The notes under the pieces were generated by a model, which saw only the letters and a program-made list of their open reading frames with translations, ran no database searches and had not been told where the DNA came from. A DNA stretch of 64,000 bases from a virus (taxonomy: Duplodnaviria > Caudoviricetes), in IMG/VR virus record IMGVR_UViG_3300050336_000170, positions 1 through 64,000 of that record. One strand, written 5' to 3'. Positions 177-46,451 of the stretch are shown here, in pieces. Positions within the stretch are counted from its first letter, which is position 1. Each line of letters begins with the position of its first letter. The position numbers and the translations under genes were made by a program.

Positions 177-3166
177 TTAATACAACTCCTTAGATAACTG
201 TTCTAAAGACTTCTTCGCTTGCAATAAATCATAATCTTCAATATCGCTTATGATATTATTTACTGCATTTTCAATATCAGTAAGCATATCACTCACTTCA
301 TCTTTATTTACAACTTCATATCCTAGTTCTTCTTCGGTAACAGTGTAACTATTAAACTTTCTATAACTACTCATATGTATCCTTTCTAAATAGATTTGTC
401 AGTTGGTTACTTTAATATATAAAATCAATTATTTCATATCCCGTAATATCAATAATATCTTTTATCTCTTCAATTTCTAAATCACCATTTTTCTTTTGAT
501 CTACTAATAATGTTGCTATACAATTCATTTTTACTTTAACTTTTCTTTTCATAATTTCCCTTTCTAAAATCATTATAAAAGGTTAATTTCATTGCTAAAA
601 TACATCGTATTGAATATCAATTGGTATTACAAATTTATTGATCCATTCTGTATAACACTTTTGACATACATTGAACCTATGTAGTTGCGTATCAAATTCG
701 CTATGATATCCCCAGAGTTGCTTCACATCAAAAGTTTCTTCTACTACTTTAAAGTCATCTGTGTATTCAATAGTTTTTACTGTCTTACCGCAACAATTAC
801 AAGTTATTTCATCAATCACTGTTTCAATAATCGTTTCTGTTTTTTGAACAACTTCTTCGTGTGACTTGATCATTTATAATCCTCGTAATCCTCATCATCA
901 AACTCGCCACGTGCTGCTCTGCATTCAGGACAATCGTACAAAGGCATATCTTCTTTTTCAGGCAGTACCTTAAAATCTTTCATAAGATTGACCAATGCTT
1001 TGTCAAGACACAATCTATGAAAATCAATAGTCATCATCTTCTGTTCATCATGCAATGGAATTGTAAGTGCATAGTATTCTGCGTTTTTCTTCTGTTGTAG
1101 AGTAATTTCCTTACCGCATTGATTACAAATAACTTTTGTCAATTATGTATCTCCTTATTTTTATTTAATTTGTTAATGAATTCTTGATTTCATTATGTTT
1201 ATATGCTGTAAGACTGATTTAAATCTATTGGTTTACCATCTGAGCATTTTTGAAATATACCATCTTCTATAAAATAATCGTCGCCAAAATAGTTAAATAT
1301 TGATTCAATATCTTTTAAATCAAAACTTTCATTAGCAATTTGATTTAATATTCTCTGTAGCTTTTTTTTACTTAATATCTTGATTAAAATCACCACCAAA
1401 TTCGAGTTTTATCAGTTATGAAACTTACTTCCTTTATATTTTCTATTCTGCATACTCTTCAAACGGTCTTGCTTTTTATCTTCTTCCATTTGTTTTTCTA
1501 CTTGCTTTTCTAACTCCATCATTTCTTGATAATATTCTTCACGTTCTTCTTCGGAACTAAATTCTCTAGGTTCTATTTTATTTCACCACCAAATTGAGTT
1601 TATTCACTTTTGTGAAACTATTACTGAATCATGATATATTGACTCTCCATCAAAACTTAGAGTAATATATAAATATTTGCTTACCACATCTTTATCAAGT
1701 ACATTTATAACTTCTAATTTACATTTTAGATATTTCTTTAATAGAGATGCTAAAATCTTTTTAATACTAATCTCTCCTCTTTTTAACTGATAGAACAATG
1801 ATTTTATTTACTTATGTACTCCTAAGTTGAAGTAATTACCGTATGATGTTATTTCTAACCCTGTCGGTTTTGCTGTTCCAATTTCATAAGGATTATCATT
1901 ATCGTATTCATAATCCCAAACATAAAAAGTAATTTCAGCGTCATCTTTTAAATCTTTAATAGTATTCATTAATTCTAGTTTTGTCATTATGTTTCCTTTC
2001 ATTAAAAATATCTCTTTTATCAGTTTTTGTTTTCTAAATATTTGTCATAGTATTTAGCGATTTCTTTTCTATTCTCCTGATAATCACTCACATTACATTC
2101 CCAATTCCATGTATCATAATAAGATTCTTTATATAATTTCATACCATTATCAAGAACAATATAACTATAAGGATTTTCCGAATCTCCAACATAAAAGAAA
2201 TCGATTTTACAATTATCAACTAAAAATTTAAATCTATGCTTTTTAGTTAAATATTCTAATTCATCATGTGCCTCTTTTTCAAATGCTGCCAAATATTTTT
2301 CTTCTACTTTTGGTGCTTTCCAATTAAGTAAAATTACTTCCATTTATATTCCTCTTTATAAAGTAAATCAAACGAGAATTTTATTAACTATAATAGTTAC
2401 TTATTTCTTTCCATGTTTCATCATATTTATCTTTTGGTATCATAAGATCACACGTAACATGACACCATGCTAAAGTCGTACTAGGTAATGGCATTACCGT
2501 TTCTCCGTCAACATAGCATATATTTGTAACTTCCTTATAATCATATTCAGTATCTTTATACTTACATGAACAATTCTTAGCGTTACAATATTTCATTTAA
2601 TTCCTCTTATAAAACGTATATTTGGTTTGTATTAGTAGAACACAATTTGTTCTCTAATGGGCAGAGTAGAATAACATAAACAAGGCTTAATTATTTCTTC
2701 GACAACATCGCGATCTAATCTCTCAGATATGTATGCCTTATCACACTTAATGCCCCTTACATTTTCTGATGCGGTTTTTAATTCATATACTGTACCGTTA
2801 AATAGTTCTGCGTATGCGTGATTTGGGTTCTTAGAAATCTTTTTAATATGTTTAGTGTTTATCTCTTGAATTAAATTATCAAAGAATGCCATACCGCCAA
2901 CCATCTTATCTGTAAATATTACATTGTTCATTTAATTTCTCCTTATCAAATTATGTTTTTGTCTGCTTTTCATATGTGCTTTTATATTGATCACAAACAC
3001 TAGGTGTTATCCCAATAGAACCTTCATTATTTTGCGCCGAGAATGTAAAATTAGGAAAACTTTTATCTTTTATTTCACAATACTGATTTGTACTAATATC
3101 TCCCAAGAAACAACTTGGTTTAGCGTAAATACAAGTAATGCAGCCTTTAATATAATATTTACTCAT
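177..3166 (-). CDS. Run of about 12 small hypothetical phage ORFs (50-110 aa, several with CxxC pairs)
   Basis: Consecutive minus-strand ORFs, most with a recognisable SD; no recognisable family. Confidence 0.7.
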
Positions 3167-4037
3167 TTCTCAACAAAACTCCACTTTCATCAGCTTTATA
3201 ATTTGTTATTAACACTTCAATATCTTTGCTGTTTTTATCTTTCTTTTGATAATTACAGTTGCTGTATGTATGATTTAAATAATATGTATTGTATTTTTTA
3301 GACCACTCTTTTAATATTTCGTTAGACCTGCCCTTGCCTTCCAAGATATTTGAGAGCGCAAAACAAATTTCATTATCATTAAGAGTGTCTAGTTTATGTA
3401 ATAAATCGCGTTCGTCTTTTTCAGTCCAACCACCATTTTCATTATAAGCAGCAATAGTTATCAGGTACGGAGGATCACAATATACAAAATCTTCTTTGTT
3501 TAGTTTTTCAATTTTTAAATCTCTAAAATCTTTATTACAAAAATTGCATTGTTTGTTTTGTAGTTGATTTATAAATGTTATAAATTTTTCTCTAAGAGAT
3601 GGATTGAATGAACTTCGGTCTTTGCCAAATGGCATATTGTATTCGCCTTTAGAATTAAACCGTATTTGATTGTTAAATGAGTAACATATTAGAGTATATA
3701 AAACCAATGGATTTTTGCACTTGTTATAGTAGTTTCTAAATTCTATGTATCCTTCTGAATTAGTCTTTGTTAGTTCATATAGCTTAATCCATTCATCAAT
3801 CTGATTAAGCATATCTTCTGTATTGTGAATTTTAAAATACTCCAACATATCTACAACTTGAGTCATTGCATCATTGTAATACACTTTTTTAGCATTTACA
3901 TTTATTCCTACATTGAAGCCTCCACCAAATAAATCTACAAATGTATTAATGTCTCTAGGGAACAATGGAATAATTTGAGGAAGTAATTTATATTTGCCGC
4001 CTATATAATTAAGTGGACTTTTTGTGTATGTTTCTAT
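3159..4037 (-). CDS. dam: Dam-family (D12 class) N6-adenine DNA methyltransferase
   Basis: Motifs FVDLFGGGFNV and VYCDPPY. The frame stays open upstream of the listed start through the conserved KSPLNYIGGKYKLLPQI to an ATA at 4037, behind SD AGAAAGGA and directly after an in-frame TAA. Confidence 0.9.
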   Translation of the reverse strand: METYTKSPLNYIGGKYKLLPQIIPLFPRDINTFVDLFGGGFNVGINVNAKKVYYNDAMTQVVDMLEYFKIHNTEDMLNQIDEWIKLYELTKTNSEGYIEFRNYYNKCKNPLVLYTLICYSFNNQIRFNSKGEYNMPFGKDRSSFNPSLREKFITFINQLQNKQCNFCNKDFRDLKIEKLNKEDFVYCDPPYLITIAAYNENGGWTEKDERDLLHKLDTLNDNEICFALSNILEGKGRSNEILKEWSKKYNTYYLNHTYSNCNYQKKDKNSKDIEVLITNYKADESGVLLRNE

Positions 4038-32401: not shown

Positions 32402-33760
32402 TTAGAACAACTTGCACCCACCTTCTCTATATTCAACCGATTTCTTTGAATATTCTTTTGATGTTATTTTATTTAATTCACAATAACATTTTTTACAAAG
32501 TAATTCTCTATTATCATGAGAGCAATCTTCATATCGTCCATATGTCTTATAAAACATAGCAAGTTCTGTTGGATTCATTTTCTTTCCACATTTACATCTT
32601 TTATTAAAGTATTTAGCAGCCATATTTTCAGATATTCCTTTAATATCTGCTAACTCTTTAATACGTTCTTTTGTTGGTGATTTATTTATCAATTCATACT
32701 CTTTGCTTATACCAGTTTTCCATTTTCCATTTATGTATTCTTGCAAAGTCCATTTAAGATTAATCAATATATGTTGTATTTCATAACTTTTTGTAAGAAT
32801 ATCAATCCATCGACTCCATAATGAAGGATAATATCTTTCAATTAGCAAATCAATATAATCTGATTGATATGGGCATATTAAGCATCCACAACGATTGAAT
32901 CCATAATTATATTGATTATTGTAAACTAATTGATTATATAATATATGTAGCCATATATCCTCGTCTTTCCATTCTACGGCAGGAGCAAATCGAGTCCAAT
33001 TTTCTGGCATATTATCGCTACCATATTGTTCTAATTGCCATTTATGATCCATTATATAATCAAAATTAGCCCTTTTAGCACTTTCGTATTTCCTAACTCC
33101 TAAAACCATCGTAAGATTTAGATTCTTATCATATACTTTATTTATTTGTCCTTCTTTATATGTTGAACAACAATTTCTCATCAATGCAGTTGGTACTAAA
33201 TAATTCTTTATTTTAATTATCCAAGGATAAAACCCAATTTTTGGATTAACTATTCTAAGATTTATATCATATGTATCGTTTAGAATACGCTTTAATGTTT
33301 TTATTAACTTGTAGGTTTCTGCTGTATCATTAGATGTATTACAAAAATATGATTCCCATTTTGGTTTTGTATCTAGTTTTTCTAGTGCTTTGAGCCATAA
33401 ATACAAAATTACTGTAGAATCCTTACCTCCAGAATGAGCAACAGCATAATATTGATCTGGATTATCTTTTATGTATCTTACAATTCTTTCTATTGAATTA
33501 TTTTCAAGGGTTTGAATTCTATTTAAATTTAAACTTATTAATTCTGATATCTTTTTTTGTTGATTAATGTCAAGTTTATTGAAGTTATTTTTAGTGATTT
33601 TAATTTCTTTATTTTCTACTTTAAACTGAAGTAAAGGTGTTGTTTGAGTAAAATCAAGATATATTTTTGAACCATTTCGCCAACATTCTGTAGGTAAATC
33701 TATTCCTGTTTTCTCTTTAAAAAACTGCCTCTCTTTTTCAAATATCGGCTTAAATCCTAT
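32402..33760 (-). CDS. PAPS-reductase-family (PP-loop, Fe-S) protein
   Basis: AHSGGKDS, RNCC, GVRKYESAKR, W...DIW, RCGCLICP, C-terminal Cys cluster. The best SD (AAGGAG) precedes an ATA at 33760. Confidence 0.85.
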   Translation of the reverse strand: MGFKPIFEKERQFFKEKTGIDLPTECWRNGSKIYLDFTQTTPLLQFKVENKEIKITKNNFNKLDINQQKKISELISLNLNRIQTLENNSIERIVRYIKDNPDQYYAVAHSGGKDSTVILYLWLKALEKLDTKPKWESYFCNTSNDTAETYKLIKTLKRILNDTYDINLRIVNPKIGFYPWIIKIKNYLVPTALMRNCCSTYKEGQINKVYDKNLNLTMVLGVRKYESAKRANFDYIMDHKWQLEQYGSDNMPENWTRFAPAVEWKDEDIWLHILYNQLVYNNQYNYGFNRCGCLICPYQSDYIDLLIERYYPSLWSRWIDILTKSYEIQHILINLKWTLQEYINGKWKTGISKEYELINKSPTKERIKELADIKGISENMAAKYFNKRCKCGKKMNPTELAMFYKTYGRYEDCSHDNRELLCKKCYCELNKITSKEYSKKSVEYREGGCKLF

Positions 33761-33954
33761 TTTTGTCTCCTTCTTTCTGTTATTTATTTCTCTTACAAGC
33801 TTCAAACCATTCGACAATACCAAAACGATATATAACGTCCGCTGTTCTAATGACATCATCAGTATCATATTTAGAAAATGTTTTCCTGGCTTCTAACTCA
33901 TCAATTTCGTATTCTCTCTATGACTTATAATTTATACCCAATGAAAATACTATT

Positions 33955-36900: not shown

Positions 36901-37085
36901 CACCAGCTAGGTCTAACATATGCTTTATTTCCACTTTCAACTTTTTGCATTTCAAGTACTTTGTTTGTTATAGAGCAAATTCTATTATAGCTATATTGAC
37001 CTTCTAAATAACTCAATTTACATTTTGCACAGTTATCTGGAATTCTCTTTAATTTCGTTTCTGCAATAATCATATTCCTCACCAA
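33955..37085 (-). CDS. Run of small hypothetical ORFs, many CxxC zinc ribbons
   Basis: 34280..34588, 34581..34853, 34920..35168, 35360..35587, 35628..35897, 35911..36315, 36655..36849, 36882..37085. Confidence 0.65.
34851..34892. promoter_or_regulatory. Tandem NrdR-box-like motifs
   Basis: CAATATGTTG (34851) and CTATATGTAG (34883), 32 bp apart, upstream of a zinc-ribbon ORF with acidic tail (34581..34853). Confidence 0.5.
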
Positions 37086-37094
37086 ATCTTACTT

Positions 37095-37976
37095 TTATCG
37101 ATTGTGTTCTTTCATCCATTGCTGAACATACCATAGCTGTCCACAACCACCACCTATGTCATCTTGACCATCAGGGTTAAATACCCTTGTATTGTATCCA
37201 TGCTCAATAAAGTACTGCGTGAACTTATTTATCTCGTCTAAATTCTTATATCCTGCATCCTTCATGGTTTCATCAGCACTACAGACTACGCTAAAAGTAA
37301 AATTAAAAACAGCAGGAGAAAACATCATATATAATTTCAAGAAGTCTCCATGTTTATTGTTTATTCCATCAATACAATAGTTAAGGTAAGGTTTACGTCC
37401 AGTCTCTTTCCACCACATCATACCTGCGTCTCTCAACTTGTATAAACTCATTTTGTTTTTAAATGGAATAAGCTTATCTCTATCAAAATCATTTGATTTA
37501 TGTATTGAGAACTGTAATCCGACCTTATCTATATCTTTTGATAATTGAATTATTCCTCTGTATGCCACATCATCATCAACACCAATTGTTGATAGTAGAA
37601 GCTCTGCATTAGGGTACAAAGTATGTAATCTTCTAACAGCCTCTTCAACATTGTCCCAATTAAGCATAGGTTCTCCCATGCTCATGAACATGATCTGGAA
37701 TCGCTTCCCTCTTGAATTGACATTTTCGATATCTTTATCGTATAGGACTGTTTTGATTTGATCCACAATTTCTTCATCAGTCAAATTTCTAATGAATCGT
37801 TTTCCTGTACCACAAAAACTACATCCTACAGGGCAACCGCTCTGTGTAGAACAACAGATAACTGTTCTTTCATAGTAATCGCCGTATTTATATAATACTG
37901 TCTCAGCAACATAATCATTTTCTGCGAACACATACTTAGATACATTACCTTCGATACTTTCAAATACTTTAAACAT
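37095..37976 (-). CDS. RlmN/Cfr-family radical SAM RNA methyltransferase (lacks the N-terminal domain)
   Basis: ICCSTQSGCPVGCSFCGTG (CxxxCxxC), RNLTDEEIVDQI, MSMGEPMLN, SIH, DIGGGCGQL (resolving Cys). Confidence 0.88.
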   Translation of the reverse strand: MFKVFESIEGNVSKYVFAENDYVAETVLYKYGDYYERTVICCSTQSGCPVGCSFCGTGKRFIRNLTDEEIVDQIKTVLYDKDIENVNSRGKRFQIMFMSMGEPMLNWDNVEEAVRRLHTLYPNAELLLSTIGVDDDVAYRGIIQLSKDIDKVGLQFSIHKSNDFDRDKLIPFKNKMSLYKLRDAGMMWWKETGRKPYLNYCIDGINNKHGDFLKLYMMFSPAVFNFTFSVVCSADETMKDAGYKNLDEINKFTQYFIEHGYNTRVFNPDGQDDIGGGCGQLWYVQQWMKEHNR

Positions 37977-39817
37977 TATTACTCCTTATAAAATAGCCAT
38001 TCTATCAATTACACTCTTCATTTTCTTCAAGCATCTTTGTGTATTTATCAATTGCGATTTTTAATTGTGATCTATGAATTTCAACATACTGTCTATAATA
38101 TTGAGTGTCCTCTTTTAATAATCTTTCTTCTGCATATTTTAGATTTCGTTTTAAATTTCTAATTTCATCAATAATATAGTTTTCCAAAGGCTTAGTATTA
38201 AACTCTATTGTATAATTTGTTTGCCTAACAAAATGTCTTTCACAATTTCCGCAATAATCTTCCTGCCAATCATCCTGACCTCCGTAATCTTCAGCTTCTA
38301 CGTAATTTTTATGTCCACAATACGGACATACAGCTTCAGACTCATAGGAACAAGCTAAATCATCGTATTCTTTTGGTTTAAGCTTTTCTAAATCTATTGC
38401 CATTTTCTATTTTCCTTTCTTAATTCACTATGAAATAATCTTTCTATCGGTTTTTTATCTTGTCAATAATTTTTAATATTGCAATCAAATCTGCTTCATA
38501 TTCTGATATAGTTTCTGCACATGCTTCAATATAAAACTCTTTACTATTTATGTTGTGAGTCTTATACCAAAGCAAATCTTCTCTTTGTTCGTTTATTTTC
38601 TCTTGTATATAATTCTTTTCCTTAGTCAAACTTGCATGAATATATCTTAATTCTTCGTTATCAAATTCCATATAGATTATTCCTTTCATATATATTTCCA
38701 ATCCTTAAACAGATTATTGATTTTGCCCATACACTCTTTTCTTCTGTTCCATTCCTTTTTACCATGTAGTAATATTCCTAATTCATTTACAGCTTCTTTA
38801 TCATTACTATAACCTACCATATCTAGATGTCTTTGTAATTCTATTATCCTACTATATTTGTTTTGTTTTCGATTAGATAATGAAGCAATAATAGCAACTA
38901 ATAGACAACCTATACCGATTCCTACTATACTACTAACTATTTGTAATATAATGTGATTCACAATATCACTTCCTTATAAAATATCATTTTCATTGCCACC
39001 ACAATGTATAGCTATACTTCGCACCTACTAGACCACCAGTGAATTGAATATCGTTATCTTTCAACCAGCTCCAGACATCTCCTGAATTAAAAATTATAGG
39101 ATAATCGTTCTTAAAATCGCAGATGTCTACAATATCCTTACCATTAAAAGCTGTCTCATATAACAATTTTTGTAGTTTGTTATATTCCAGTCTTGTTTTT
39201 ACTGTTTTTGTTATGTTTTTTAACTCTTCTCCTAGTTTCAATTTTATACCTCCTAATGAAATGCAAGATTGGTTTATTAAATTTCTACTTCAAAATCTTC
39301 TACTTCTTCTGTACTAACCAGATCAGATTCTCCGTATGCAAAATCATCATCTTGCCATTTTTGTTCTGCTTCTTCTTCATTATCAGCCTCTACATAGTAG
39401 AACGAATTTACTGTGAGCTTATATTTTTTCATTTATATATTTCCTTTCATACAATAAAATATTTATTACTTTCTTTTGCCTTCACTACAATATTTCATAA
39501 TACGGTTTACTGAGTATCCACTATCAGTCCAATCTGATTTTAAAGCGCATGGACAATTTTTATCATATTGGTATTGACACTCAACACAATATACAATATT
39601 TTGTGCTTTTATGATTAATTCTTCGATATCTTCAAATTCACCTAATGATTTATATTGAGCTAATTCTAGTATATTAACAAATCTTTCTGCATCTTCAATA
39701 ACAACTGGTTCAGTCCATCCGCATTGTCTACATATGTTACTATGAAAGTATGGATCATATGAAGCTGTTCTGTGGCATATTGGACAAGTCATATTTTGCA
39801 TCTCCTTAAATCTGTAT

Positions 39818-39846
39818 TTGACATATGTATAAAATAAATCTATAAT
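39818..39846 (+). promoter_or_regulatory. Consensus sigma-A promoter
   Basis: TTGACA-17-TATAAT. Confidence 0.85.
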
Positions 39847-39906
39847 GTGTATACTTCTAATATTCTCAATGATATAACTTACTTAACGAAAGGAATGAAT
39901 AATAAT

Positions 39907-40191
39907 ATGGCAAAAGGTAAAACTCCGTCAACCAAAGACACTATTGTAGAAAAAGTAGGTAGAAAATTTAGACCCCTCCCAGAGCGTCTTGCTGAAATAG
40001 ATAAGAAGATTAAATTTCATCAAGACACAATTGATCGTCTTAACACCAAAAAAGCAAAAATGATTAAAAATGCTACTAATGAAAAAGAGCAAATCAAAAC
40101 GCTGAAAGAGAAGCTTGAGGCAAAAGGCATGAGCATAGAAGACTTGCTCAAGAAGATTGATGAAACGCCTGTTACAATAGTATCCGAATAA
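39907..40191 (+). CDS. Small basic coiled-coil protein, the only convincing plus-strand gene
   Basis: Own promoter, SD GAAAGGAA, ATG at 39907 and terminator; Lys-rich heptad pattern. Confidence 0.8.
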   Translation: MAKGKTPSTKDTIVEKVGRKFRPLPERLAEIDKKIKFHQDTIDRLNTKKAKMIKNATNEKEQIKTLKEKLEAKGMSIEDLLKKIDETPVTIVSE

Positions 40192-40200
40192 TATGTATTT

Positions 40201-40232
40201 GAGCTTGTGGCAACACAGGCTCTTTACTTTTT
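40201..40232 (+). terminator. Intrinsic terminator
   Basis: GAGCTTGTG-GCAA-CACAGGCTC followed by a T-rich tail. Confidence 0.8.
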
Positions 40233-42124: not shown

Positions 42125-42211
42125 TGGTGTCGGTGATGCGACTCCAACGCATAAGATCATTTGATCACGGTATTTTAAGTACCGATTGTCTAGCAGTTCC
42201 AACACACCGAC
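42125..42211 (-). tRNA. tRNA-Leu(UAA)
   Basis: Acceptor GTCGGTG/CACCGAC, anticodon arm CGGTA-CTTAAAA-TACCG, long variable arm GATCA-AA-TGATC, T arm ATGCG-TTGGAGT-CGCAT, encoded CCA. Confidence 0.9.
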
Positions 42212-42285
42212 TGGCAGCGATATACTTAGTTGAAAAGTATCCTTGAGAGTCAAATTCTCACATGCTTCCGTTACACCATATCGCC
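42212..42285 (-). tRNA. tRNA-Gln(UUG), non-canonical
   Basis: Acceptor GGCGATA/TATCGCT, anticodon arm TGAGA-ATTTGAC-TCTCA, T arm TACTT-TTCAACT-AAGTA, G discriminator, encoded CCA abutting tRNA-Leu. Confidence 0.85.
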
Positions 42286-42289
42286 ATAT

Positions 42290-42363
42290 TGGTGACTCAT
42301 GAAGGTTACGCTCCTTCGTCTACTGATTAAAAGTCAGTTGCTTTACTATTAAGCTAATGAGCC
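42290..42363 (-). tRNA. tRNA-Lys(UUU), non-canonical T loop
   Basis: Acceptor GGCTCAT/ATGAGTC, D arm GCTT/AAGC, anticodon arm ACTGA-CTTTTAA-TCAGT, T arm GAAGG-AGCGTAA-CCTTC, encoded CCA. Confidence 0.9.
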
Positions 42364-43697: not shown

Positions 43698-44654
43698 TTA
43701 ATACCCAAAAGCTTTCTTCCACATGTTATATGCTAATTCAATGTCTTTTGCCTTTTGAGTAGCAACATATTCTTTTTTCAGTGCATACTCTTTATTTTCA
43801 ATATCCATTTCTACATATTCACTAAACGATATTGATATATTCTCTTTTTCGAGTTGATACCACCTATAAAACAGTCCAGATTCATATACTCTAATTGGAC
43901 TCAGTTTTATATATTGTCCTGTTTCTTCTTTATACTTTTTGTTAAACGTAGTAATCTTTGCTCCAAATTGTTTTGCTCTTAATACATTTGTCTCTTTTAA
44001 TAATCTTAATAAATATGGTGAATCGCACAGATCAAAAAATAGCTTTTCTTTTTTAGTTCTCTTCATTAATTGATTTGATGGCACTGTTATCTGTAATAAA
44101 TACTTAAAGATTGGACTAGGGGTTATAGTTTTGTTGCTTGTTTTAATAATATTATCTTCTAAATTTACTTCATCACGCCTTAAAATAACAGCCTCTTCAT
44201 TTGTAAATCCCTCATATAGTAACCAAAAATAAATCCTGTACATATTCATAAAATGTAATTCCTCAACTGGAGGATATACAACATCTAATACGTCTGCTAG
44301 ATGTTCAGGACTTTTCAACATTTCTCGTTCAAATACATATGAGTTATCTATCTCTGATGCAGATATTAATGCTAAATGATTTTCTAGTATATTCGTTTTA
44401 CCGTTAATAATACACCAATCTACGTATTGTTTTAGTCTGCTTATATTCCATGCAATACTTTTTATATCACGGCTACCAAGTGAAGCTATACTAATTTTAA
44501 GTTCATCATAATTCATCTCTGAAATGTCTTTATCAAAATCACTTTCAGCTTTATTATATAGTTTTTTAAATAATATTTTGTAACTCTCTTTGCCTTTTTC
44601 ATCCTCATTTAAACTATTAATAAACTGAAGTTTTTGATTTTCATTATACATCAT
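43698..44654 (-). CDS. Integrase-fold DNA-binding protein, catalytic residues degenerate (SPbeta YopR/MrpR/SroF-like repressor)
   Basis: Core-binding domain (LKQYVDWC); box I reads LYEGFTNEE with no catalytic Arg and box II reads LSPIRVYESG with no HxxR; directly downstream of a DGxHR gene, as in SPbeta yopQ-yopR. Confidence 0.7.
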   Translation of the reverse strand: MMYNENQKLQFINSLNEDEKGKESYKILFKKLYNKAESDFDKDISEMNYDELKISIASLGSRDIKSIAWNISRLKQYVDWCIINGKTNILENHLALISASEIDNSYVFEREMLKSPEHLADVLDVVYPPVEELHFMNMYRIYFWLLYEGFTNEEAVILRRDEVNLEDNIIKTSNKTITPSPIFKYLLQITVPSNQLMKRTKKEKLFFDLCDSPYLLRLLKETNVLRAKQFGAKITTFNKKYKEETGQYIKLSPIRVYESGLFYRWYQLEKENISISFSEYVEMDIENKEYALKKEYVATQKAKDIELAYNMWKKAFGY

Positions 44655-45982
44655 AATTGCTCACCCCACTTTGAGATGAAGTATTTTTCAATTTTTACCT
44701 CATCTGTTGCCTTTCTCTCTATAGGTGATACCGTCTTTCTCCAATTAATAGATTTTAATAATGATTCAAGTTTATTGCGCCAGTTTAGATCATTCTCTAG
44801 TTGCTTTGATAAATAGGTGTATCCAACCCATGTCACAGCTTCAGTTGACCATTTAGTTTTTCTAGCTAGCTCATAGTCTTTAAAATCATCTATCATCACT
44901 TCGGATAGATAGTTATAAAATTCAACTAACCAATCCTTGACTTTTTGTGCCTGTGAATTTAATGAAAAACTATTAACATTATAATATTTCTGTATTGCGT
45001 TAGCTAAAGTAATTTGAACAATAAACCCTCTCTCTATCCCTGTTGTTGTTATATTTCGCTTATATACATCTTCTGCATTAGGATCAATTTTAATCCACTC
45101 AACTATTCTATTTGCATAATTACGTTCCATTGTTTCTTTGTGTCTAGTATTTGGCGGTGTAGCTTTCCATTCCTGAGATATCATATCTTTAACTGTATCA
45201 ATATCATAGAAAGTAAAAGCTATCTCAAAATATCTATTAGCAAACAAATCTCTAAGTTCTGGATAGTTTGAATATGCATATTCTGCACCTAAAGACCTAT
45301 GATTACCGTCTGGTATAATTATATCTCCATCTTTTGGCAAATAAATGCATTTGTTTTCTTCATCATAGGTATAACTTGATAACCCATCATTGATTAAATT
45401 AAGTCTTATCATGTTGTAATGATATCTATCGTTTGCAATTTTTTCTTCAATTTCTCTTACTTTTTTCTTATTAATCTCTATTTGTTTTAATATTTCTGTG
45501 CCTTCGGAATTTTTAATTGATTTGCTTTCCCTTTGTAACTCTGGTGTTACTCTAATAATACCTTTTCTTTTTGACTCTGCCAACTGTTGAACAGACATAA
45601 TACATGAATATTGATTACTTGATAACTGCACAACGTTGTGTAGCACATAAAGATCGTCTATCTTAATATCATCTCGACTAAAGAACTTGGAATTTTTTAT
45701 TTCTACTGGAGTAAAATAATCAGATACTTTACAAACATAAACTTTTTGTTCTACTTGATTACCAATTAATTCCATTGCATAGGCAAACCAATATAACTCA
45801 AAATCTTTAAGACTATCAAGTTCAACAGATTTCATAACTAATTTCTTATAATCAGCTATTGTAAATCTTCCTTCTTGAGTCATAAAATCTTGAACTTTAC
45901 TTTTAAATTCTTCATTAGAAGAGTTAAATAGCTTTTTCTTTATTAGACTAATTAACTCTTCTCGGCTGTTTTCATTCTTCAT
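44651..45982 (-). CDS. DndB/ParB-like DGxHR-domain protein (YopQ/SroE-like)
   Basis: ELQRE..., IIIPDGNHRS motif; ATG at 45982 behind AAGGATG; stop overlaps the next start. Confidence 0.7.
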   Translation of the reverse strand: MKNENSREELISLIKKKLFNSSNEEFKSKVQDFMTQEGRFTIADYKKLVMKSVELDSLKDFELYWFAYAMELIGNQVEQKVYVCKVSDYFTPVEIKNSKFFSRDDIKIDDLYVLHNVVQLSSNQYSCIMSVQQLAESKRKGIIRVTPELQRESKSIKNSEGTEILKQIEINKKKVREIEEKIANDRYHYNMIRLNLINDGLSSYTYDEENKCIYLPKDGDIIIPDGNHRSLGAEYAYSNYPELRDLFANRYFEIAFTFYDIDTVKDMISQEWKATPPNTRHKETMERNYANRIVEWIKIDPNAEDVYKRNITTTGIERGFIVQITLANAIQKYYNVNSFSLNSQAQKVKDWLVEFYNYLSEVMIDDFKDYELARKTKWSTEAVTWVGYTYLSKQLENDLNWRNKLESLLKSINWRKTVSPIERKATDEVKIEKYFISKWGEQL

Positions 45983-46001
45983 AAATACACATCCTTTTGT
46001 A

Positions 46002-46451
46002 CTAAGCTGTGGCAAGTACTCGCTCTTCGACATTAATATACTTCTTACGCAATCTTTCTACCATCGCAATTATAGATTCATTATCCATATGAATCAAAAG
46101 TGGCGTTTCCTCTGTACATGCTTCTGCGATCTTTACTATATATTCTCTTGGAAGAGTTGTGATATACTCACCTATATCGTCTTTAGACCTGAGTTGTTCT
46201 TGCTCACATAAAGCAATGCTATCCTTAGCCAATCCACATTTTTTAGCATCTAAGAAAACGTGTGTTGGCATATAAGCTTTGTTATGTTCAGCCCCTGTAA
46301 GCGGAACTGCATGGATAATAGGACTATAACGATTTCCTATATCATTTTGTGTTATGATAGCAGGCCGCCATCCAGCTTGAGAGTGCTTGTTATGTTTATC
46401 TCTTTCAAAATAAACCATATATACACTATTCATCTTGGGAATAAAGTTCAA
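46002..46451 (-). CDS. mazF: PemK/MazF-family endoribonuclease
   Basis: HSQAGWRPAIITQNDIGNRYSPIIHAVPLT...PTHV...GLAKDSIALCEQ closely resembles Firmicutes MazF (QGGxRPxxxxQNDIGNxxSP). Confidence 0.88.
   Translation of the reverse strand: MNFIPKMNSVYMVYFERDKHNKHSQAGWRPAIITQNDIGNRYSPIIHAVPLTGAEHNKAYMPTHVFLDAKKCGLAKDSIALCEQEQLRSKDDIGEYITTLPREYIVKIAEACTEETPLLIHMDNESIIAMVERLRKKYINVEERVLATA

Follow-up and report, generated by a model that had tools for sequence, protein, structure and literature searches.

The window analysed here is the first 64 kb of the virus record IMGVR_UViG_3300050336_000170 (131,585 bases, or 131.6 kb), which IMG/VR classes as a provirus, and this report concerns a short gene for an RlmN/Cfr-like radical S-adenosylmethionine (SAM) protein, P0001, together with the two short sites between which that gene lies. 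The gene occupies positions 37095-37976 on the minus strand, runs from an ATG start to a TAA stop at 37095-37097, and encodes 293 amino acids. A Shine-Dalgarno (SD) sequence, AAGGAG, is located at 37982-37987 on the same strand, 5 nt ahead of the ATG. Within the coding sequence, again on the minus strand, the codon for Cys41 (37854-37856) corresponds by alignment to Cys118, the resolving cysteine of E. coli RlmN, and codons 48-55 (37812-37835) specify the CxxxCxxC motif predicted to bind a [4Fe-4S] cluster through Cys48, Cys52 and Cys55. Codons 100-103 (37668-37679) specify the MGEP of the invariant FMSMGEP, with MSMGEP as residues 98-103, and the Cys278 codon (37143-37145), within GGGCGQL (residues 275-281), aligns with the methyl-carrying Cys355 of RlmN. 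The first-pass annotation of this DNA, made from the letters alone, had described the CxxxCxxC, MGEP and CGQL motifs as intact, and all three were found in full.

The phage DNA of the window has a G+C content of about 29%, and the minus strand holds nearly all of its genes. The P0001 gene, the sole radical SAM gene of the virus record, is an ordinary gene of the long polycistronic arm that runs leftward. No sigma-70 promoter or terminator specific to it was found, the counts of such elements being equal to those in shuffled sequence. Its G+C content of 34.7%, versus 30.6 +/- 2.7%, deviates only mildly, and a recent foreign origin was rejected on composition. The only sequencing run listed for the virus record is a DNA run, an anaerobic digester metagenome that may be its source, with no RNA run listed, and P0001 itself is listed on a contig of 179,671 bases, which exceeds the virus record by about 48 kb of possible host flank.

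Profile, sequence and structure searches all returned RlmN as the best match of P0001, with profile scores well short of those that define the family. The only Pfam profile matched was Radical_SAM. The best NCBIfam model was TIGR00048 (RlmN), at 114.9 bits (E 4e-33) against a curated cut-off of 290, while the Cfr models TIGR04432 and NF000424 gave 82.8 and 89.7 bits (E about 1e-23 to 1e-25) against cut-offs of 550 and 530, none of which was reached. A six-frame search scored 119.7 bits to TIGR00048, also below the cut-off of 290, and the upstream extension of that match was rejected because it runs through two stop codons and gains only about 5 bits. The alignments of P0001 to the RlmN and Cfr models each begin near profile position 70-90 (position 81 in TIGR00048), and a sequence search of the PDB returned RlmN and Cfr chains only, aligned from their residue 75-93 onwards and, for the RlmN chains, from residue 91-93. 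The N-terminal RlmN_N domain (PF21016) gave no match in P0001, in contrast to the full-length relative P0248 that served as a control, so that the earlier statement that this domain is missing was borne out. A split gene with a detached N-terminal domain was considered and rejected, as the upstream open reading frame (ORF) is without RlmN_N.

The AlphaFold2 model of P0001 (pLDDT 89) agrees with these searches. In Foldseek, its top 11 PDB matches were all RlmN or Cfr (6fz6, 3rfa and 5hr7; Cfr 9p0p), with E values from 8e-19 to 4e-13, and the next radical SAM family followed at E 8e-7. Across 35 homologues, down to 45% identity, C41, C48, C52, C55, C278 and MGEP are invariant. Taken together, the sequence, the residues of the mechanism and the predicted fold place P0001 in the class A radical SAM methyl-synthases, the RlmN/Cfr superfamily. 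Two further cysteines, Cys201 and Cys232 (window positions 37281-37283 and 37374-37376), are likewise invariant in the 35 phage-clade proteins, but neither RlmN nor Cfr has them.

Within that superfamily, P0001 is one more member of an already sequenced, uncharacterised phage-specific branch. Proteins of this family are about 290-300 amino acids long. Metagenome searches returned 5,327 of them at E <= 1e-3, the top 120 being 68-76% identical, and 75 representative clusters at E <= 1e-30. The short protein also occurs in 13 isolated phages of Stenotrophomonas, Xanthomonas, Vibrio, Aeromonas and Salmonella at 46-59% identity, and 70 IMG/VR loci carry a homologue, the nearest at 71% identity. A survey of 185,579 species genomes gave only about 17 loci of the short clade (>=46% identity), mostly on contigs of metagenome-assembled genomes, and an identity gap separated them from true RlmN (<=35%). 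We see no difference in kind between P0001 and the short phage proteins of the phrog_24834 type, which have the same length and architecture, are 46-59% identical to it and are sited in phage accessory regions; examples are XMQ95057.1 of Stenotrophomonas phage ANB28, gp133c of Salmonella phage Arash, P0168 of Vibrio phage 496E54-1 and BFVD A0A6J5RTK8. Their database labels vary from RlmN and radical SAM protein to prohibitin and hypothetical.

The first-pass annotation had proposed a phylogeny against the RlmN and Cfr clades, and P0001 fell outside both. In a tree of 34 phage proteins with five RlmN and three Cfr references, the phage proteins formed one clade with an SH-aLRT support of 100. 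When 46 further representatives were added, the short clade (32 rows) again separated, with support of 100, from both reference families and from some other short forms. A clade of its own (support 99-100), across the main split from P0001 and nested among full-length RlmN-like proteins, was made up of Cfr, Cfr(C) and Cfr(D). By sequence, then, the short clade is homologous to RlmN and Cfr and a member of neither.

Several observations suggest that P0001 is probably an intact and active enzyme of this short branch. Inteins usually sit in conserved functional sites. The homologue at L024:4801-6729, on a 148.7-kb phage contig and with exteins 71% identical to P0001, carries a LAGLIDADG intein of about 340 amino acids between Phe54 and the third cluster cysteine, which serves as the +1 residue. 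The invariant cysteines and MGEP, and an intein placed exactly at a cluster cysteine, therefore argue for a functional active site. By homology, the [4Fe-4S] cluster held by the CxxxCxxC motif would cleave SAM, a methyl group would first be placed on Cys278 and then joined by radical addition to an sp2 carbon of an adenine ring, and Cys41 would resolve the covalent enzyme-substrate intermediate.

RlmN is a dual-specificity methyl-synthase that makes m2A2503 in 23S rRNA and m2A37 in tRNA, and Cfr makes m8A2503 in 23S rRNA. The earlier description of P0001 as RlmN/Cfr-like holds for its class, by sequence, residues and fold, but does not extend to membership of either family. P0001 would have the fold of RlmN (TIGR00048; 3RFA, 5HR7, 6FZ6), its CxxxCxxC and MGEP motifs and the equivalents of Cys118 and Cys355. 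It differs in the missing RlmN_N domain (about 80-100 amino acids), in its score, in its separate clade, in clade-specific invariant residues that include Cys201 and Cys232, and in being more acidic. With Cfr (TIGR04432 and NF000424; 9P0P) it probably has in common the class A radical SAM chemistry, as judged from sequence, and the fold, as judged from the model, but the Cfr clade lies far off. Since P0001 stands below the curated cut-offs and outside both clades, neither methylation of A2503 or A37 nor a resistance phenotype can be read from its sequence, and neither family name, nor a prediction of resistance, is justified.

The two sites that flank the gene belong to a motif, AYVAAA-N6-TTTBRT, that recurs throughout the window. 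As the first-pass annotation had reported, the gene lies between a copy at 37081 and another at 37988: the first (37081-37098) is exact and the second (37988-38005) has one mismatch. The stop codon falls inside an arm of the exact copy, and the small ORF that comes next has its SD after that copy. At the other end, the site begins, on the coding strand, with the final base of the TGA that ends the upstream gene, and the P0001 gene's SD comes directly after the site. The window holds 41 exact copies, against 1.74 in shuffled sequence, and 94 copies with one mismatch allowed, against 32 expected. A scan of spacings from 0 to 15 gave all 41 at a spacing of 6 and between 0 and 5 at each other spacing. 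Junction zones make up 11.5% of the sequence and contain 31 of the 41 exact copies. A copy is present at 57 of 144 gene 3' ends, or about 40% of the junctions. Because the junction zones also hold 26 one-mismatch copies, where about 3.5 would be expected by chance on our own arithmetic, the site at 37988-38005 is probably genuine.

Read along the coding strand, the motif is ATRAAA-N6-TTTKRT, placed after the stop of one gene and before the SD of the next; an SD-like word begins between -3 and +8 from the site end in 29 of the 41 copies, as against 16% at random positions. The arms are conserved in sequence and the spacers are all different. The two variable arm positions show no covariation on either strand, nor do the flanks, in this phage or in a distant phage genome, G001, and a reading of the motif as an RNA or DNA hairpin was rejected for this lack of covariation. 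Over the whole record, 41 of the 50 copies lie within the first 64 kb. In G001, which has only 4 of the 144 window genes in the 60 kb compared, the motif occurs in 59 copies, versus 2 for a reversed-pattern control; there, too, the spacing peaks at 6 and the copies lie 5' of ribosome-binding sites. The motif is enriched in two more genomes, G002 and G003, as well. The motif is common to very distant large phages (the window, G001 with loci L085-L087, G002 and G003), where it lies in the leftward arm and always just 5' of ribosome-binding sites.

The likeliest reading of the motif is an expression signal, conserved in the lineage and recognised by a protein as an operator on DNA or mRNA, rather than a cassette border, and the sites that flank the P0001 gene belong to the junction grammar of the resident genome and not to that gene. 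In its layout, the motif could be compared with known mycobacteriophage sites. Cluster K phages have start-associated sequences (SAS/ESAS), of which the ESAS are inverted repeats with a variable spacer, located just ahead of translation starts and without a known function (PMC3203893), and the stoperators of Cluster A phages are repressor sites that stop transcription (PMC9283540). Like them, the junction motif consists of many short conserved sites distributed across a phage genome, at gene junctions and in one orientation; it differs in sequence, host phylum and size, being an 18-bp motif of 6-6-6 design with about 60-70 copies in 64 kb. The junction motif is real and merits a study of its own as a regulatory signal.

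For the gene as a whole, we consider it somewhat probable that P0001 is a short-branch class A methyl-synthase, with an adenine in RNA as its favoured substrate, and that the flanking sites are a junction expression signal. Within this reading, whose basis is sequence comparison, its role would be an accessory or counter-defence function of the phage. Family priors make RNA adenine a plausible substrate, though we would stop short of calling it probable, with tRNA ahead of rRNA and a position in a tRNA anticodon loop likelier than one in 23S rRNA; a candidate nucleotide or NAD-derived substrate appears rather unlikely. The neighbourhood offers some context for tRNA. The phage's own tRNA genes, which had been placed about 4 kb away, are indeed 4.1 kb off: tRNA-Leu(UAA), tRNA-Gln(UUG) and tRNA-Lys(UUU) lie at 42125-42363 on the minus strand. 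All three have A at position 37, which does not discriminate between them. When the loci were dereplicated at 80% identity into 69 lineages, a tRNA gene lay within 2 kb of the homologue in 10 of them, and these cases include one lineage with the gene inside a tRNA array, as well as phage ANB28 and an Actinomyces genome. A variant of the short clade with an N-terminal cold-shock domain (P0032) recurs in one lineage, on more than 15 contigs; this and other N-terminal "fusions" may be upstream ORFs read through, and we treat them as weak evidence because the Met at the usual start is kept. ARAGORN also reported tRNA-like genes with four-base anticodons (gacg, gata, tgaa and ttca) in tRNA arrays adjoining the homologue, at L009:7472-7544, L010:6923-6998, L059:4469-4544 and L067:7491-7564; these could be real quadruplet-type loops or artefacts.

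A number of points weigh against this preferred reading. The literature that was searched for phage RlmN/Cfr-like enzymes contained nothing on the short clade, biochemical data included. The RNA-binding N-terminal domain is absent, and the short clade is more acidic than the RlmN/Cfr cores (median pI, the isoelectric point, 5.6 and net charge -6, versus 6.9 and -0.5). RlmN was present in all 10 bacterial control genomes, so a phage copy of the same specificity would be redundant. Genes of the NAMPT family within 2 kb in 9 of the 69 lineages, and rare fusions to NUDIX and HD domains, point to nucleotides instead. Finally, tRNA arrays may adjoin such accessory genes for no other reason than a variable region in common.

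Several of these points bear on a different account, which we regard as unlikely but worth setting out: that the short clade has left RNA and methylates the adenine of a free nucleotide or NAD-derived molecule in phage counter-defence. Its targets could be NAD+, ADP-ribose or an adenine-based immune signal, and the clade would then be a third class A lineage acting away from A2503 and A37. One pointer is the neighbourhood. Eleven of 91 loci have a NAMPT-family gene within 6 kb, often directly adjacent, and it comes with Prs-like, NMNAT-NUDIX and NADAR genes, that is, with the NARP1 and NARP2 gene sets, whose pathways are present in only 5.4% of sequenced phages (10.1101/2024.02.11.579819). Such NAD-reconstitution neighbours flank the homologue in L024, L025, L030, L042, L043, L053, L055, L060, L065 and L084. 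However, the record of this phage contains no NAMPT-family gene, the NARP papers examined mention no radical SAM partner, and the adjacency may merely mirror common accessory islands.

Domain architecture points the same way, with similar reservations. Variants of the short clade carry a C-terminal NUDIX domain (P0127) or a C-terminal HD/dNTPase-like domain (P0192), but each of these is rare, at one or two sequences. The acidic surface and the loss of the RNA-binding domain would suit a substrate other than RNA; on the other side, we know of no class A radical SAM methylase that acts on a free nucleotide. If true, the nucleotide account would explain both the repeated siting beside NARP1 and NARP2 genes and the NUDIX and HD fusions.

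It is less likely still that P0001 acts in the manner of RlmN or Cfr, by C2 or C8 methylation of A2503 in host 23S rRNA, with a change in translation or drug sensitivity as the consequence. These two are the only characterised homologues, and all catalytic residues are held in common with them. Yet the scores fall far below the cut-offs (115 bits against 290, and 83-90 against 530-550), P0001 lies outside both clades without the N-terminal domain, and the hosts are expected to own RlmN already.

The first-pass annotation had also taken the gene to be packaged exactly as one cassette. In its strongest form, the gene would be cargo of an integron-like system, excised or inserted as a unit by recombination at the two 6-6-6 sites, and this we consider very improbable. 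The idea has an evident basis, as two copies of a strongly enriched, junction-located motif bracket the gene precisely and the window encodes a tyrosine-recombinase-like protein at 43698-44654, which has an MrpR-like core-binding domain and was the only integrase-like candidate seen. Moreover, of the window genes up to 6 kb from the P0001 gene, none is represented by a homologue within the same distance of its counterpart in the 70 viral loci. The P0001 gene is thus all that these neighbourhoods have in common, which would make it a single-gene unit of inheritance or exchange. Integron cassettes with their attC sites would offer a parallel, in that they too are single promoterless ORFs in one orientation with short palindromic elements between them.

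The bracketing itself is not distinctive, because 26 of 143 single genes have the motif on both sides, close to the roughly 16% expected under independent placement, and with the motif at so many junctions and phased to the SD, the packaging claim lost its footing. Integron attC sites are defined by their folded structure, and each of them travels along with its cassette. In the present motif it is the sequence of the arms that is conserved, and the variable positions pair no more than expected on either strand, which argues against a selected hairpin of the attC type. Tyrosine recombinases normally require matching overlap regions, but the spacers of this motif all differ.

Nor do the sites appear to travel with the gene; they stay with the resident genome. 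Of the 12-kb loci around the 70 viral homologues, 55 lack an exact motif copy, among them the nearest (71% identity), and most of the others have only one. The gene copies of L001 and L024 are 83-85% identical in nucleotides, but this similarity covers the ORF only, from the start codon to a point some 16-19 nt short of the stop; the upstream site is found in L024 only and the downstream site in L001 only, so neither flanking site is common to both. In G001, which has the motif yet so few of the window's genes, the homologue has a one-mismatch site at its stop and the nearest upstream site 200 nt off. When the 9.5 kb surrounding the gene were compared by megablast with 50,697 phage records, nothing matched, and IMG/VR searches with two neighbouring proteins gave three weak partial matches for one, none for the other, and no close relative. 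The cassette idea would be striking if true and fails on the evidence available.

The weakest candidate, which we find hardly credible, is that P0001 C-methylates adenine in the phage's own DNA as an anti-restriction modification: DNA hypermodification is frequent in phages and the window has Dam-like, DndB-like and PAPS-reductase-like genes, but clustering of the 70 viral loci revealed no conserved partner gene and no DNA-modification neighbour, nothing in the sequence points to DNA, and we know of no precedent.

Other features of the window deserve mention in their own right. A PAPS-reductase-like protein of 488 amino acids is encoded at 32402-33868, a weak DndB-like protein at 44651-46033 and a Dam-class methylase at 3159-3965, and together with the MrpR-like gene these might form a DNA-modification set. 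In G001, a PAPS-reductase-like gene lies 0.7 kb from the RlmN-like gene. Within the minus-strand arm of the window, the region 39818-40222 holds a lone plus-strand ORF (39847-40191; 114 amino acids, coiled-coil-like), preceded by a perfect TTGACA-17-TATAAT promoter at 39818-39846 and followed by a terminator-like hairpin at 40201-40222, both on the plus strand.

In summary, P0001 shows that the automatic labels "RlmN" and "Cfr-like" must not be taken as evidence of function or, Cfr being a clinically important resistance enzyme, of resistance. To our knowledge, RlmN and Cfr are the only characterised class A radical SAM methylases. The short clade would be a large third branch, nearly confined to phages, that has kept the full two-cysteine machinery and dropped the RNA-binding N-terminal domain. 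That this clade recurs next to tRNA arrays and to genes of NAD reconstitution suggests that it takes part in the arms race between phage and host.

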